From a virus (lineage: Duplodnaviria > Heunggongvirae > Uroviricota > Caudoviricetes), in the IMG/VR virus record IMGVR_UViG_2547132488_000024, positions 1-25,709 of that record: 25,709 nt of DNA. One strand, given 5' to 3'. A program made the position numbers and the translations under genes. This document shows positions 1 through 21,759 of the stretch, piece after piece (position 1 is the first letter of the stretch; each line of letters opens with the position of its first letter). A model generated the notes under the pieces. It saw only the letters and a program-made list of their open reading frames with translations. It had not been told where the DNA came from and made no database searches.

Positions 1-108
1 GACAAACAAATTTTCAGTGGACACAAAACAGAAAATCAGGTGTTGATTTACGATCGTAAAACCAAAATCACGCCAACACTGGATTTGCCGCTTGTGGTCA
101 GTAAGTAG
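1..108 (+). CDS. Possible 3' end of an ORF running off the left edge (35 open codons then TAG at 106-108); product unknown
   Basis: Open frame from base 1 to TAG; no start visible; short, so chance open frame not excluded. Confidence 0.2.
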   Translation, partial: DKQIFSGHKTENQVLIYDRKTKITPTLDLPLVVSK

Positions 109-249
109 GCAATACAGAAAATTTTCTGGCAAAAAGACTTGGTATATTAACTCTGAATAACTCCCTAATATCTTGATTTTTCTTGGTGTTAAGTCTGATT
201 AACTTTTCGGCTATTTTGCGTATTGTACTGATTTTTCTTTATTTTTCTT

Positions 250-309
250 CGGTCTTGAAAACCGGCGACCCGAAAGGGTTCCAGAGTTCGAATCTCTGCG
301 CTTCCGCCA
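250..309 (+). other. Partial tRNA-Ser(UGA)-like 3' segment (anticodon loop CTTGAAA through T-arm GGTTCCAGAGTTCGAATCTCTG, acceptor 3' strand and CCA); 5' half absent; likely duplicated att core of an integrated element
   Basis: Matches from memory the 3' ~60 nt of enterobacterial serT; no complementary acceptor 5' strand (GGAAGCG) in the 100 nt upstream. Confidence 0.7.
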
Positions 310-318
310 GATAATCAA

Positions 319-350
319 GGGGTTACCGAATGGTAGCCCCTTTGCCTTTT
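319..350 (+). terminator. Intrinsic terminator-like hairpin (GGGGTTACC-GAAT-GGTAGCCCC) followed by T-rich run, immediately after the tRNA fragment
   Basis: 9-bp stem with one G-U pair, then TTTGCCTTTT. Confidence 0.5.
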
Positions 351-356
351 TGGCTC

Positions 357-386
357 TTGGTATAAACTTGGTATACCAATTGGTAT
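357..386. promoter_or_regulatory. Cluster of TTGGTAT half-sites: direct repeat CTTGGTATA x2 and perfect 14-bp palindrome ATACCAATTGGTAT (373-386); candidate protein-binding site
   Basis: Exact repeats read directly. Confidence 0.35.
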
Positions 387-574
387 GTTTTCTGCAAAAA
401 AAATTCCTAAAATCCCCGCCAGCACAAACAATCACTTGCTCATTCATGCTTTATCAAGAAAATATCCCTGCAAGTTGTGTTGTTTCTTTCTGCGTCCCGA
501 CAGGGTGTTATGGTTCCCCACTTCTCTCGGGACGGACACTTAACGGACGGGAAATTTTCAGGTGTCATTCAGAC

Positions 575-610
575 GTGCTTCGCCCCGGACTGGCGAAGCA
601 CGCTTTTTTT
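575..610 (+). terminator. Strong rho-independent terminator (10-bp perfect stem GTGCTTCGCC/GGCGAAGCAC, 7-nt loop, then GCTTTTTTT)
   Basis: Perfect inverted repeat followed by T7 on plus strand. Confidence 0.7.
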
Positions 611-719
611 CTCAGATTATTCTGTTTTGCCTGTGTGTTGAATAACTCCACTACAGTTATATAAAATCAGTAACGGCTGGAAATCATTCAATACTCGCAC
701 TATCGAAAGTTCGCCAGCC

Positions 720-765
720 AACCGCAGCACGTCCTGCATACGTCGTGTCTGCGGTTTTTCTTTTT
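720..765 (+). terminator. Hairpin (AACCGCAG...CTGCGGTT) followed by TTTTTCTTTTT; plus-strand terminator convergent with gene G
   Basis: 8-bp stem, 21-nt partly paired loop, T-run. Confidence 0.4.
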
Positions 766-768
766 CGC

Positions 769-1311
769 TTACATTGTGTCTGGTTCTTCCGGCCATTCAA
801 TATCCGGCGCGGTCGATGTATCAACACGGTTTAGTAACACCCGATATTTCTTCCAGGTCAGTAACTGTTCCTTTTCCCCCTCTGTCGCCATATCCAAATC
901 CACAGCATCCCGAAGGGGGGCCATGCAATCATCGGCCTGTCGCATTAATAAGCTCTTTTTATTTTTTGCCTGCTGCACCAGTTCTTCATAAGTGCATTCC
1001 CGGTTAATTACCACGCCATCCTTAAACATCCATTTACCCGAAATATCAGCCCGGCGATTTGCTGTAATATCAGGTAATTCAACGACGCTTGCGCCTTCCG
1101 GATTAATTGCTGAAACATCCTTTTCAATACAAATAATAACGCCGTTGTGGTCATAGACCATTTTCAACGTATCAGGCTGAAAGTTCTTTTGTTCCTCATA
1201 CCAGTTTTTCCCATCCTCTGTATAAAGCCATTTGATGTTAAATTGTTTCGTTAGCTGGTATTGCTCTTTTGTTTTAGGGTTGCCAGCAGTAATGTTTTTT
1301 AAGTGCATCAT
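769..1311 (-). CDS. G: Tail fibre assembly protein (P2 gpG-like), 180 aa
   Basis: Position immediately downstream of and overlapping tail fibre gene; size as P2 G. Confidence 0.75.
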
Positions 1312-3416
1312 CGTTCAATACTCCCCGCGTTATACCACACCCCATTAATGCAATACTGAATTGGCCTTGCCTGAATTGTATCAATTAATTCATCACGGTT
1401 TTCGTTAACTGAACCCGTAACGACATAACCTGACCTGTCAGACCAGCCGGGGCCATGCCATGTCTTAACAGATAACAGACCGCCAAGGCGAATACCTGTA
1501 ATAAACCTTGAGTTACATTCTGCCCGCGTATATGCACCAACATCTCCCGCAGAAGGTTTGCGGGTTGTGGTGTAAAACTCTGACCAGTCAGCCTCAAATC
1601 CATAACCATCACGCGCTGAACGATAAAAAATACCGCCGTTCCTGTAATTCACGCGGAACTGTACAGCAGGGCAGCTCCCCGTATTCATATTGAAGTGGAG
1701 GATTAATGTCGATGCGCCACCAATGTTTGCGTTATAGACCCCGCTATTCCAGTTCCAGCCAACAGCTTTATCATTTCCGACAGTGCTTCCTGTTTGCCCT
1801 AAAGCAAATGCAGGCTGCTGGTTTTTCGTGTTGTAGTCTCGTCGCCAGCCAGGAGCGTAAGCATCACCATGATTAATATAAGTGAATTGAGCGTTAGTGA
1901 TTCCGCCGCCGCTGGACGTACTCGGCGTGGTAACGCGTATGGTCATTGCGCCGCGAGTGCCAATAACTTCCACCACAGCACCTGCAAGACAAATATTTCC
2001 GCAACCTGTATCTGTAATGACCTTATTGTTTGCATAAGCCCATGAGCCTTTGCACATCCAGTAAGGATGGTTAAATGCTCCCTGACTCTCCAGCCACGAA
2101 ATAAATTGCGCGGTTGTCCAGACCTGACTATCGCCACCAATATTCAGCCATGCGCTATATGCGCGGCAGGCACCAATATTTTTGGTGAAGGTATCTTTTC
2201 CCGGAATATCTGCGCCGTTCTGGTTTTTCTGTAATGCGCCAGAAGCCTGATTTACCGTTTCCTGTAAACCGAGGTATTCGATAACGGCAGCAACGGTCGA
2301 TTTCGCAAGAATATCCCGCCCGACTTTTGTCAGGGTTGCCAGGCTGGCGACATCATTCCCCGTAAAATACGGAAACCTGTCTGCCGCAGTAGCAAGCCCG
2401 GCCAGCGCCGTCAGGGTGGCATCTTTCGGTTGCTTACCCGCAAGCGCGTTAGTCATGGTGGTCGCAAAATTCGGGTCGTTGCCCAGCGCCGCCGCCAGCT
2501 CGTTCAGCGTGTTCAGTGCGTCAGGTGAAGAGTCTACAAGTGCGGCAATCGCGGCCATAACGAAAGCCGTGCTTGCGATTTGGGTATTATTCGTTCCCTG
2601 TTGTGCAGTTGGTGTTGTTGGCGTTCCGGTCAGTGCCGGGCTGTTTAATGGGGCTTTCTTGTTCGTTTCATCCATTACCGCCTTAACCGCTTTTGGTGTC
2701 GCTGCCAGCGTTTCAGACGTGCTGTTGGTTGCACTGCTGAGCTGGACTATCCCTTTTCGTGCCGTCGTGGAGTCCTGAGCGGTATATTTTCCGTTAGCCA
2801 GGTCATACGCGGCCTTAACCGCTTTCGGCGTTGCGGCCAGCGTTTCAGAATCGCTGTTAGTGGCGCTACTGAGTTGAACAAAGCCTTTTGCGGTCAGCGA
2901 GGCGTCCGGGTGACGTCGTGACTGTTCATGCTCTTTCAGTTTGTCATCCACGTAATCCACTGTGGCCATCACCATGGTGTTATCCACGGTAAGCGCCACG
3001 GTGGCAGTGCTGGATACGGTCAGAATGGTGCGAAATGTTTGTGCACGACCGGACCCTTCGGCAACGGCTGGCTTGTAACTTTCGGCAGTATTGCCCACCG
3101 CGATTAAATCGCCGTGCTCATCAAATACACCAATTTCCCGGATCCAGAATCCGCCCGTTTCAGGAGGAATAACCAGCTCCGCAATAATGCGGTTCTGATG
3201 TGTTGCGTCCAGGATGACGCGATTAACAGTGTGTCGCCACACCTCATGCACCAGACGGGTCTGCTTACTGTCTGGTGTGGGCAACGTGCCGCCACCGTCG
3301 CCCACGGCCATATGAGTCAGGCGGACAGGCTTACCATCTGGCGCGGCTGCCTGAGCTAATTTTTTGGCACCCGTATCGGTGATAACGGTTTTAAATTTAC
3401 GTGTTGTGGTACTCAT
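1308..3416 (-). CDS. H: Tail fibre protein (P2 gpH-like), 702 aa, conserved N-terminal half, tandem fibre repeats, divergent C-terminal receptor-binding part
   Basis: N-terminus and repeat QLSSATNS(D/T)[13 protein letters not shown] x2 resemble P2 H from memory. Confidence 0.9.
2679..2891 (-). repeat. Tandem in-frame ~132-nt repeat inside H (two copies of a 27-aa fibre motif, H residues ~176-202 and ~220-246)
   Basis: Near-identical protein and DNA segments read directly. Confidence 0.7.
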
Positions 3417-10835: not shown

Positions 10836-11705
10836 TCAGAAGTCAGCCAGCTGGTCGGAGGCTGCGCCCGTTGCGGTGAACCGGTTCTGCGGATCGCCGT
10901 CCTGCGTGCGCAGTTTTTCCTTCAGTGCTGCCAGCTCTGTGGTCAGTGACGTAATTTTCTGGCGGTCCTGCTGATGGCGGGTTTCCAGCACATTAAAACG
11001 GTCGATAATGTCGGCCTGTGACGTTGCGACGCCTTCCACCGCTTCCTGAATACGGGAAAAACTGGCGTCATCCGCTTTGCGGCCACGGCCAATAATCCCC
11101 ATTACGCGGTTAAACCACTGGGTGCCTTCTTCCTGGCGTTGTTCTGCCATTTCGATGATTTCAGACTAGATGGCTTCGGAGATAAGCGGCGCTTCACCCT
11201 GGATACTGTTGAACGTCATCACCGCCTGACGTTGCTGTGCCGTGAATTTCAGGCGCTCAGTGCCCAGGCTTGCCGGGGTGTCGGTCATCGCCAGCCCGAC
11301 CAGATAGGCGCGCCCGTTAACGGAGAACTGCGGGTGCAGTTCGATACTGGAATAGATTTTCTTGCCGTCCGCGACAAGCTGCTTCATGCGCTCGGTCGGT
11401 TCGATTTCTGCATACAGCGCAGTACGTCCGGCCAGCGGACCTTCCGTAATGTCTTCCGTACTCAGTGCGGTGACATCGCCCATTGCGGAAAATTCGCTTG
11501 ACGGGCATGGCGAGAGATAGTGCTCAACGTTCACGCGGGCAGCGTAAACATCCGGGTTGAAGTTCTCGGCGGCTTCACGCAGATGCACCGGACTGATTTC
11601 ACGGCCATCAACAGTTGATCCGGAGACAGCCACGCGAAACTTTTTGCGGGATGTCTTTTTTTCATTAGCCATAGTTTTTGCCCCTCTGACTGGTTCTTCA
11701 GTCAT
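10836..11705 (-). pseudogene. O: Capsid scaffold/protease gene O interrupted by a single in-frame TAG (minus-strand codon at 11166-11168); 179-aa N-part and 104-aa C-part are in the same frame
   Basis: Both ORFs share frame; junction ...ISEAI-TAG-SEIIEMAEQRQ... is collinear with the middle of P2 gpO (about 284 aa). Confidence 0.8.
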
Positions 11706-15744: not shown

Positions 15745-16056
15745 TTACTCAGGAAATAACGCCCGGATATTCCCAGCCATCTGGCTGGTTATCTTAGCCA
15801 CTGGTGCAGACTGTGCTTCAAACTTTTTTGAGCTGATTTGTGTCACAGGTAATATCTCATCATCAGCCCATGCGGCCAGTCGGTAAGCCTCTGCCGGATT
15901 CGTCTTCAGAAGTGCCAGCCCGGCCAGAAAAGCCACGCGTTGGCCGCTTTTGCGGGCTTCTGGTGTAAGGCTGTCCAGCCAGGCGCATGCTTCTCCTTCG
16001 TTCTTGACGGCAGCTGGCTTCAGATAGAAACTTATTCTTCTGGTTGGTGTCGTCAT
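15745..16056 (-). CDS. parR: ParR-like centromere-binding adaptor, 103 aa (RHH-type N-terminus similar to R1 ParR)
   Basis: Immediately downstream of parM with RBS AAGGAG; ISFYLKP...LDSL...AFLAGLALL resembles R1 ParR from memory. Confidence 0.6.
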   Translation of the reverse strand: MTTPTRRISFYLKPAAVKNEGEACAWLDSLTPEARKSGQRVAFLAGLALLKTNPAEAYRLAAWADDEILPVTQISSKKFEAQSAPVAKITSQMAGNIRALFPE

Positions 16057-16060
16057 TGGT

Positions 16061-17020
16061 TTACTCCTTGTTCATTGCGTACAGCCCATTAACCAGAGCA
16101 AATTGTGGCACCCCGTCCGCGATGAAAGTCGCATTAACTCCGCAGGCTTCGCGGATAGCGGGTGCCACAATCTCCGCCCCGCCACCGACAACCATCACCC
16201 GCCCGTAACCCGAAAAAACCGCCAGAGCGCGGATCACGCGTTGTTTCAGTGTTTCTTCCTTTTCACGAATAATCGCCATCAGGCTGGCGTAATGCGCGTC
16301 ATTGTGGATGTGCTGGCGCAACCAGGCTTCATCATGGCGATGTTCGATAATGGTATTGGCGATGTGGTGACTGGTGCGCATACCGTTAGTGGCCATCACC
16401 GACAGTACGGCATCGGCCATCAGAGAAACGCCTACGTGTGGATCGCAAAACACCTGGCTGATACCTGCCAGTTGCCCCTGAACCTTTGCCACATCCAGCG
16501 TGGTTCCGCCCAAATCCACAATCAGCAGGGATTCAAACGGACTCATGTCAGCCAGTGCCTTAAAGCCAGCCGGAATGGATTCAGGCATAACCCGCACGTT
16601 ACGGATAGTGAATGCTTCGCCGTTCTGGTACTCCACCGGGCGCATAACGTTCGCTTTTTTGCGGTTGATGTTGGCCATGTCCGGCTGTGCGTTTGTGTCG
16701 AAATACTCGCTCAGTGGCAGGGTGACAACCACATCCACCTCCCGTGGCGTGATGCCTGATTTGACCAGCGCGTGATGAATGGCAATGACATTCACATCGC
16801 TGTACTGGTATTGCGTGTCGGTCGTCTGGACAAAGCGATCGCTGACCGGATCAAAACCATAGCGCACGCCATCAAGCATGTAGTTCGCGGGCTGCGTGCC
16901 ACCGAACGGCGCAGACCATTCCGACTTGAAGCTGTTCGGGCTGATGGCGTTGCGGCGTTCGCCGTTCTCAGTCCATGCCAGCTTGATGTTGGTGGAGCCG
17001 TCGTCGATACAAATTCTCAT
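16061..17020 (-). CDS. parM: ParM/StbA-like actin-family partition ATPase, 319 aa
   Basis: IDDGSTNIKLAW, DLGGTTLD and VVGGGAEI phosphate/adenosine motifs; collinear similarity to R1 ParM from memory. Confidence 0.8.
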   Translation of the reverse strand: MRICIDDGSTNIKLAWTENGERRNAISPNSFKSEWSAPFGGTQPANYMLDGVRYGFDPVSDRFVQTTDTQYQYSDVNVIAIHHALVKSGITPREVDVVVTLPLSEYFDTNAQPDMANINRKKANVMRPVEYQNGEAFTIRNVRVMPESIPAGFKALADMSPFESLLIVDLGGTTLDVAKVQGQLAGISQVFCDPHVGVSLMADAVLSVMATNGMRTSHHIANTIIEHRHDEAWLRQHIHNDAHYASLMAIIREKEETLKQRVIRALAVFSGYGRVMVVGGGAEIVAPAIREACGVNATFIADGVPQFALVNGLYAMNKE

Positions 17021-20934: not shown

Positions 20935-21759
20935 TTACTTCACCGGAACAAACGGAACAGCGGTATTACTGGTCATGTATTGCGGCAGCGTGCCGTTCCA
21001 TTTGTTGATTGCTTCCAGCTCCATAACACCGGGGTTCTGGCGCAGAGCTTCACCACGCAAACGAATGGCGTCGGCTTCAGCCTGGGCTTTTGTGCGAATG
21101 GCATCGGCCTGTCCGGCAGCTTCTGCGCGCAGCATGTTGGCTTCTGCTTCGCGTTGCTTGACTTCCTGCTCGCGTTGCAGGGTTTTCTGGTTTGCCGTGA
21201 CTTTGGCATTAATGCTGTCGATAACGGTTGGCGGATATTCCGGCTTACCCACATAAGAGAGGCTCATTACCTGAATGCCGATAGGTGTCATCTCTTCCTG
21301 AATGTCTTTAAGTGCTGAATCCAGCAGTTCAGACTTACCACCGTCGATAAACTTATCGGTGGTCATTTTGCTGGCCAGTCGGTTGAGTGCATCGGCGATC
21401 TTCTGGCGCAGGTCAGTGTCGGTAATGTCGTCCACGCCTTTGCGGTAGGTCTGAAACACTGTAGTAACTTTGGATGGATCAACCTTGTAGGCCACACCGA
21501 TGTGATAGCCGATGGTTGTGCCGTCACTCATCTGAAAGCTGAACGGCTCATCGTAGGTCTTCATTTGTTTGAAGGTCGGGAAGATGTAAACCTCGGTATT
21601 CCAGCCTGTCCAGTAGCGACCAACGCCAACCACTTCACCGACGCCTTTATCGTCGCCCAGTTTGTTGACTTTGATGCCTACATTGCCCGGCTCCACGCGG
21701 TCACAGCCAACCAGAAGTGTGGTCATCAGGAGAGGGATGAGTGGTAATAGTTTTTTCAT
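20935..21759 (-). CDS. SPFH/band-7 (stomatin/prohibitin/HflKC-like) lipoprotein, 274 aa, lipobox LLVGC, Ala/Glu-rich coiled-coil C-terminus
   Basis: Signal peptide with lipobox, SPFH-like core, coiled-coil repeat EAEANMLRAEAAGQADAIRTKAQAEADAIRLRGEA. Confidence 0.8.
   Translation of the reverse strand: MKKLLPLIPLLMTTLLVGCDRVEPGNVGIKVNKLGDDKGVGEVVGVGRYWTGWNTEVYIFPTFKQMKTYDEPFSFQMSDGTTIGYHIGVAYKVDPSKVTTVFQTYRKGVDDITDTDLRQKIADALNRLASKMTTDKFIDGGKSELLDSALKDIQEEMTPIGIQVMSLSYVGKPEYPPTVIDSINAKVTANQKTLQREQEVKQREAEANMLRAEAAGQADAIRTKAQAEADAIRLRGEALRQNPGVMELEAINKWNGTLPQYMTSNTAVPFVPVK

Follow-up and report, generated by a model that had tools for sequence, protein, structure and literature searches.

A chimeric tail-fibre gene joining a lambdoid attP-form site to a P88-type prophage: a probable recombinant in a draft assembly

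The IMG/VR virus record IMGVR_UViG_2547132488_000024 (Caudoviricetes) consists of 25,709 nucleotides (nt), the whole of which was analysed here and is referred to below as the window. From left to right, the window contains the 3' end of a lambdoid integrase gene, an attachment (att) site built around a copy of the 3' end of the tRNA-Ser gene serT, a noncoding spacer, a tail-fibre assembly gene (tfa), a tail-fibre gene, and a P2-like prophage of the P88 type (Xuanwuvirus) that ends in its own integrase gene. It is a 100% match to positions 3 to 25711 of contig APZX01000373.1 (50,294 nt), which belongs to the draft assembly GCA_000357685.2. The original prediction, made from the letters of the sequence alone, took the leftmost of these features for the edge of a decaying P2-type prophage. 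The analysis described here points instead to the tail-fibre gene as the place where two phages meet: lambdoid attP-form DNA, running from window position 1 to about 2480, is rather probably fused to the P88-type prophage by one crossover within this gene, and the product is rather probably a genuine recombinant.

The tail-fibre gene and its crossover

The tail-fibre gene (1308 to 3416, minus strand) has an intact reading frame encoding a protein of 702 residues with the Pfam domains Phage_tail_fib and Phage_fiber_2, and its single-nucleotide polymorphism haplotypes mark it as chimeric. The N-terminal portion of about 312 residues is of the P88/P2 H type, and the C-terminal portion of about 390 residues (55% of the protein) is of the lambdoid Stf type. 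The exact 702-residue protein is on record in one contig only, APZX01000373.1 itself.

Comparison with the parental haplotypes reveals where the change occurs. Positions 250 to 2480 are 99.9% identical to lambdoid prophages located at serT. When the comparison is extended to 250 to 2760, three of these (reference loci L008, L009, and L016) are 98.9% identical, with 2 mismatches (1451 and 1452) in 250 to 2480 and 25 in 2481 to 2760; L009, in particular, has no mismatch over 1453 to 2480 and the first at 2481. From the other side, the P88-type references L032 and L033 match the window from 2244, with mismatches only up to 2361 (L032) or 2377 (L033) and then none through 2770. The two parental types differ from each other (L009 vs L032 and L033) at 5 to 6 sites in 2249 to 2377 and at more than 24 sites in 2481 to 2760, and are identical in between. 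At every one of the left-hand sites the window carries the lambdoid allele, and at every right-hand site it carries the P88 allele. This is a single clean haplotype switch, and it places the crossover, in the narrowest estimate, at 2378 to 2480.

A wider interval is obtained when more P88-type sequences are considered. In IMG/VR, a sequence of 147 nt spanning the switch matches 11 ordinary P88-type contigs, in which similarity to the window ends at 955 or 2244, and one of these, L035, shows no difference from the window over 2173 to 2528. The 147-nt sequence is thus a natural P88-type haplotype, and the crossover interval was widened to 2173 to 2480. The lambdoid stf and P88-type H genes have a region of about 500 nt in common, and the alignments indicate that a single homologous crossover, within 100 to 300 nt of perfect identity, joins the lambdoid and the P88-type DNA.

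The widest interval also contains a 26-mer, TTCCTGTAAACCGAGGTATTCGATAA (2259 to 2284, plus strand, within the tail-fibre gene), which is a gix/cix-like invertase crossover site and presumably resembles the gix site of Mu. It coincides with a homology switch, at 2244 to 2288, of P88-type prophages that have invertible segments. Lambdoid serT prophages carry the same gix/cix-like sequence in stf, with no invertase shown nearby. The position of the 26-mer raises the question of whether a P88-type DNA invertase, encoded beside gene G in such prophages, might have acted between the site in H and the identical site in lambdoid stf. A parent of the L035 type, identical to the window on both sides of the site, would permit a crossover there, and exchange of tail-fibre genes by invertases has been proposed (Sandmeier 1994, as cited in PMC3945230). 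Nevertheless, the references that best match the right-hand side disagree with the window immediately beyond the site (2286/2289 in L032; 2296 in L033) and again at 2361 (L032) or 2377 (L033), and at all these positions the window has the lambdoid alleles, which places the crossover to the right of 2361 to 2377. In addition, a tblastn search finds no invertase gene within the window. Serine invertases strongly prefer to invert DNA between sites in cis, within an enhancer-bound synapse, and are poor at making fusions, which also counts against this explanation. General homologous recombination is therefore favoured, given the differences of L032 and L033 just right of the site, and an invertase-made joint is considered quite improbable.

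A separate feature of the gene is a motif of about 132 nt that is tandemly repeated at 2680 to 2889. Its copy number varies among P88-type prophages; the repeat gives several overlapping matches in L003 and is seen as an offset of one unit in L019.

The att site and the lambdoid end

The left end of the window carries the att site. Positions 250 to 309 (plus strand) are an exact 60-nt copy of the 3' part of K-12 serT (tRNA-Ser UGA), starting on the 3' side of the anticodon stem and running up to the CCA, and this is the longest exact match. ARAGORN finds 0 tRNA genes in the window and in the source contig; as a control, the same program detects the intact 88-nt serT in reference loci including L009 and L002. 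Within the window, neither a second copy of this core nor an intact tRNA was present when looked for. The segment is thus a partial tRNA-Ser(UGA) 3' end rather than a complete tRNA, as had been proposed.

Both sides of the core were examined by aligning window positions 100 to 470 with the attP of the free lambdoid phage Evi (LR597642), the corresponding junction in RM11911, the attL of K_EC180 (intact serT plus prophage), and the native K-12 serT. To the left, positions 1 to 108 (plus strand), which are cut by the end of the contig, are the 3' end of a lambdoid tyrosine integrase gene: 35 codons (1 to 105) followed by a stop codon at 106 to 108, with all 35 of the encoded C-terminal residues identical to those of the RM11911 Int. 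Next comes the P arm (109 to 249, plus strand, with one copy of TTGGTAT at 139 to 145), which aligns with the Evi attP and with the RM11911 tandem junction, and not with the 5' half of K-12 serT or the hyaA side. To the right of the core lies the P' arm (310 to 395, plus strand), which contains a stem-loop at 317 to 342 with a T tract reaching to about 351, and four copies of TTGGTAT (357 to 386, one of them inverted). The 5 copies of this heptamer that lie within 139 to 386, out of 6 in the window, are found on both sides of the core, and their arrangement suggests that they are candidate arm-type binding sites for the integrase.

The stem-loop, with a predicted folding energy of -18.8 kcal/mol (z -4.5), agrees with the earlier observation that a terminator follows the tRNA fragment. 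It had also been thought native-looking, and here the comparison leads elsewhere. The other phage copies and the attL copies are identical to K-12 through position 315 (66 nt), and the window has G instead of A at 310. From 316 to 391 the window matches Evi, RM11911, and the K_EC180 attL in the same arrangement, and K-12 diverges; the loop of the K-12 terminator is not the same, and the top base pair of its stem is swapped (AGC...GCT vs ACC...GGT). Overall, similarity to K-12 is confined to window positions 250 to 350, at 89% identity. The terminator after the core is thus the phage's own replacement copy, carried in the P' arm, and not that of the host serT locus. Lysogens in which an intact serT is followed by the same right-arm sequence are consistent with this; these include K_EC180 and W13-16 (250 to 924, 89.5%) as well as L008, L009, and L016 (250 to 2760).

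Since both flanks of the core correspond to lambdoid phage arms, and the right flank is not the native yccA side, the alignment indicates a site of the attP form (P arm, core, P' arm) and not of the attR form. In Evi, positions 31368 to 31758 are collinear with window positions 1 to 391 at 97.7% identity, with no gaps, and this is the attP of a free phage read straight across the core. The proposal that the fragment is the distal att junction of an element lying to the left can be retained in part. An att system of a leftward element is indeed present, as the integrase C-terminus attests, and the DNA upstream of the core is phage DNA ending in an integrase gene. The junction is not an attR, because the DNA downstream of the core is P' arm and not bacterial.

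An attP-form junction within a chromosome is a natural arrangement for this att system, given that the complete genome of RM11911 has the same junction between two tandem lambdoid prophages at serT. There, tfa, intact serT, and hyaA follow one another at the end of the left prophage. The tandem serT prophages of RM11911, RM13745, and RM13752 (all complete genomes) agree with the window in the integrase C-terminus, the P arm, the 60-nt serT core, and the P' arm with its phage-borne terminator and TTGGTAT repeats, and match window positions 1 to 746 at 94.6%. In these tandems a second lambdoid prophage, equipped with lambdoid tail genes, lies on the right, whereas the window turns P2-like after 2.2 kb. 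Evi, which shares the integrase 3' end and both arms, diverges after 391, where it has other cargo (an EspV-like gene and others) and a different tail-fibre end.

The DNA that follows the P' arm is also lambdoid. About 420 bp separate the hairpin from the tail-fibre assembly gene, and the spacer at 396 to 768 is found at the tail-fibre end of lambdoid prophages, where it accompanies tfa beside ompW in L004 (396 to 728) and beside pot/pepT in L017 (396 to 2760). Because this segment also goes with tfa where lambdoid prophages occupy other att sites, 310 to 395 is taken as the P' arm proper. The gene tfa (769 to 1311, minus strand) encodes a protein of 180 residues with a Caudo_TAP domain and overlaps the tail-fibre open reading frame (ORF). 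The collection indexes the exact Tfa protein in 300 blocks; in 9 of the 10 places shown it follows J, Lom, and a lambdoid Stf of 840 to 843 residues containing phage_tail_N (L008 to L011 and L013 to L017), and in 9 of 10 it lies about 1 kb from hyaA, with serT between them. Its identity to two P88 G proteins is 60 to 69%. The gene that had been read as a P2-type G is thus, by these comparisons, an exact lambdoid Tfa.

Two side observations concern this region. The spacer, which is conserved in lambdoid prophages, contains a strong intrinsic terminator on the plus strand (574 to 602, -21.2 kcal/mol, z -4.8) and a promoter-like site (638 to 667), and no ORF was recognised in it; it could be a small RNA or the remnant of a moron. 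Within tfa, positions 812 to 988 (minus strand) give a sub-threshold match to the Rfam family IS009 (63 bits, with a gathering score of 117), the sole match when positions 1 to 1400 were scanned with Rfam. The likely reason for this match is that the family itself derives from remnants of prophage tfa genes.

The P88-type prophage and its missing tail module

The rest of the window (3419 to 25709) is the remainder of the P88-type prophage: genes I, J, W, V, S, R, lysis, X, L, M, N, and O, then P and Q, the parM/stbB cargo, A through cox, and C and int. From 2481 to 25709 the window is 95 to 98% identical to, and collinear from H to int with, P88-type prophages located between raiA and pheL; for 3419 to 25709, the identity to such prophages, known from many E. 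coli genomes, is 96 to 98%. Blocks of the collection in which the exact P2-like integrase is indexed number 14,392, and the six places shown are all at pheL/pheA. In the source contig, the sequence beyond the P2-like int continues with pheL, pheA, tyrA, aroF, and yfiL. The integrase end of the P88-type prophage is anchored in host DNA at pheL, and the prophage presumably resides at its usual site between raiA and pheL. Escherichia phage P88 and other Xuanwuvirus members have the same integrase, pheL site, and parM/stbB cargo as the window. Cargo at 15745 to 17020 and 20935 to 21759 encodes a ParM/StbA-like actin together with a partition/stability protein, and an SPFH/Band_7 protein; both sets are conserved in the relatives.

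A complete circular element of 25.7 kb was considered and rejected, since the contig runs on for 24.6 kb into pheA, tyrA, and aroF. Each end of the window coincides with the boundary of a gene call: on the left the truncated integrase, whose first complete codon is at contig position 3, and on the right the P2-like integrase with its stop codon. Because both ends fall in this way, the window appears to be a 'prophage' delimited by a pipeline, which merged parts of two phages.

The original prediction also expected the gene order of P2 to the left of G. In P88-type prophages (L019, L026, L027, and L032 were the references for gene order), the order is different. Leftward from G there is often an inverted alternative tail-fibre/tfa cassette with a DNA invertase; U, T, E', E, FII, and FI follow on the opposite strand; and then come D, ogr, hok, cargo (a TM2 protein, and Com with a DNA methyltransferase), and raiA. 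The D protein is annotated in a shortened form of 266 residues in MINF_1A, C11, AH21B060, and ARS-C101. When the P88 invertase, U, T, E', E, FII, FI, D, and hok proteins, together with ogr and D of C11, were searched against the window by tblastn, none gave a match, and the positive controls I, J, H, and G all did. The earlier statement that sheath, tube, tape-measure, D, and ogr genes are missing from the window is thereby borne out. Compared with P88-type prophages, the window is without the P88-type G, the invertible segment, the invertase, U, T, E', E, FII, FI, D, ogr, and hok, and it has an amber codon in O.

This amber codon, which had been noticed earlier, is present in the assembly: codon 169 of the capsid scaffold gene O is changed from GAG to TAG (11166 to 11168, minus strand). 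O is intact, at 278 residues, in three prophages that have an identical A protein of 931 residues. The amber could be a genuine nonsense mutation or a sequencing error of a single base.

The absence of the tail module and the amber codon in O, which is consistent with decay, would both suit the explanation given in the original prediction, in which a deletion removed about 9 kb of tail genes from a P2-like prophage beside serT, so that a spacer of about 460 bp and G were left beside an attR with its native terminator. The location and origin of the DNA argue otherwise. The P88-type prophage is anchored at pheL, not at serT; the terminator and the flank at 310 to 395 are a phage P' arm and not native DNA; and, as the spacer, the presumed G, and half of H are 99.9% lambdoid, there is no P2 DNA to the left of about 2480. 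A deletion cannot create such a structure, and this explanation is hardly credible. Under the favoured recombination, the sheath/tube/tape-measure/D/ogr module would not have been deleted in place. It would have been parted from the baseplate genes, and would lie outside the window because the recombination joint sits between the baseplate and tail-fibre genes and the sheath module.

The earlier alternative, that a second integrated element abuts the prophage, comes closest to the present picture. Two elements are present, as it supposed, and they are fused inside the tail-fibre gene instead of lying side by side.

Origin and meaning of the junction

Two routes by which general recombination could have produced the junction fit the window. 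By the first, a circular lambdoid genome would enter H of the resident P88-type prophage through general recombination, as a Campbell-type insertion. This single event would leave attP intact, followed by tfa and a chimeric H, and the P88 G, the invertase, U to FI, D, and ogr would then lie beyond the inserted phage, one lambdoid genome length to the left (the serT lambdoid prophage of RM11911 is about 44 kb). By the second route, two different lambdoid prophages would first integrate in tandem at serT, and an inversion of about 1.7 Mb would then take place between one of the stf genes and H. In the K-12 orientation, stf at serT (plus strand, 1.03 Mb) and H (minus strand, 2.74 Mb) are mutually inverted, as this route needs. 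It would involve two events, each of a kind with precedent. In Shiga toxin-producing Escherichia coli, prophages in tandem at a common site and the occupation of serT by prophages are both on record (PMC8767318), and recombination between lambda and prophages over stf/tfa homology has been demonstrated experimentally (De Paepe et al. 2014, PMC3945230).

More specifically, the first route would yield a nested prophage, in which a lambdoid phage has lodged in the tail-fibre gene of a P2-like prophage by a Campbell-type crossover and not by its integrase. Such an element would keep an intact attP in the chromosome, would be unable to excise by its own Int/Xis, and would split the baseplate and sheath operons of the P2-like prophage by a whole lambdoid genome. 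This version can be offered only tentatively.

The sequence of the contig shows directly what each segment is, that the flanks have the attP form, and that the haplotype switches once; we infer that the contig reflects the actual chromosome. Several findings weigh against that step, and they would equally be expected of an assembly chimera, in which a lambdoid prophage of the ordinary kind at serT had been misjoined to a complete P88-type prophage between raiA and pheL in the exact 100- to 300-nt repeat of their tail-fibre genes. In a second step, the assembler would have taken the P arm in place of the 5' half of serT at the core of 60 to 66 nt, possibly by way of reads from the excised, circular phage. 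The junction structure is found in 1 contig of a fragmented draft (at least 373 contigs), and that contig begins 2 nt before window position 1, about 250 nt to the left of the tRNA core. The unusual joints, the H crossover and the core, are both at exact repeats of 60 to 300 nt, where assemblers misjoin. The junction was not replicated: among 5,426 complete E. coli genomes searched with window positions 1 to 1400, 1 to 2800, and 1 to 25000, no record spans the join; in IMG/VR, no contig links a P88-type H to a lambdoid tfa C-terminus or P' arm; and a pattern scan of metagenome contigs and GTDB representative genomes gave 0 exact matches to the attP-form core sequence. The single occurrence of the exact chimeric H protein points the same way. 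In addition, neither the tail module nor the reciprocal junction could be found. A further search of IMG/VR with the lambdoid Tfa, for a free phage collinear with window positions 1 to 2480, was uninformative, the best matches being just 67 to 70% identical.

Other observations speak against a chimera. It needs either two independent misjoins within 2.4 kb or one misjoin together with abundant attP reads, whereas one biological event, a Campbell insertion by homology, accounts for both joints. The haplotype switch is single and clean, with no mixed consensus, and a genuine attP-form junction of the same att system exists in a complete genome obtained with long reads. On balance, an assembly chimera is regarded as unlikely, though it has to be taken seriously, and fusion of the lambdoid DNA to the P88-type prophage by one tail-fibre crossover is the reading we adopt.

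Comparable rearrangements are known. Iguchi and co-workers are said to have described, in 2006, chromosomal inversions mediated by prophages in E. coli O157. Crossovers in short stretches of identity within the side-tail-fibre genes of otherwise unrelated prophages, like the one proposed for the window, were found by De Paepe et al. (2014, PMC3945230). In both of these cases the partners are lambdoid, whereas in the window one partner is P2-like (Peduoviridae) and the product keeps an intact attP-form site in the chromosome. On a longer time scale, mosaicism of tail fibres among P2, Mu, P1, and lambda has been described (Haggard-Ljungquist et al. 1992 and Sandmeier 1994, both cited in PMC3945230). 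As in the window, it involves a common C-terminal cassette of H/S/stf together with tfa, and a gix/cix-like site at the boundary of constant and variable parts. That mosaicism is an ancient modular exchange among functional phages, whereas the exchange in the window brings along an att site and an integrase gene and splits the late genes of the recipient. The event is thus either an instance of a well-known kind of prophage rearrangement or an artefact.

The value of the analysis lies in annotation and quality control and not in new concepts. Finding a tRNA 3' fragment with a terminator behind it does not prove that prophage and host meet there, because phages that target tRNA genes carry their own copy of the terminator. 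Likewise, prophage callers can output the product of a recombination, or of a misassembly, as one 'prophage lacking tail genes'.

If the fusion is real, it would be a base-resolved case of recombination between a lambdoid and a P2-like prophage, members of unrelated families of temperate phages, through their common tail-fibre cassette. One event would have disabled both prophages, separated 12 kb of tail genes from the baseplate genes, and left an active-looking attP in the chromosome. Should the lambdoid phage in fact be nested within the P2-like prophage, this chromosomal attP could recombine with serT and so drive further large rearrangements.

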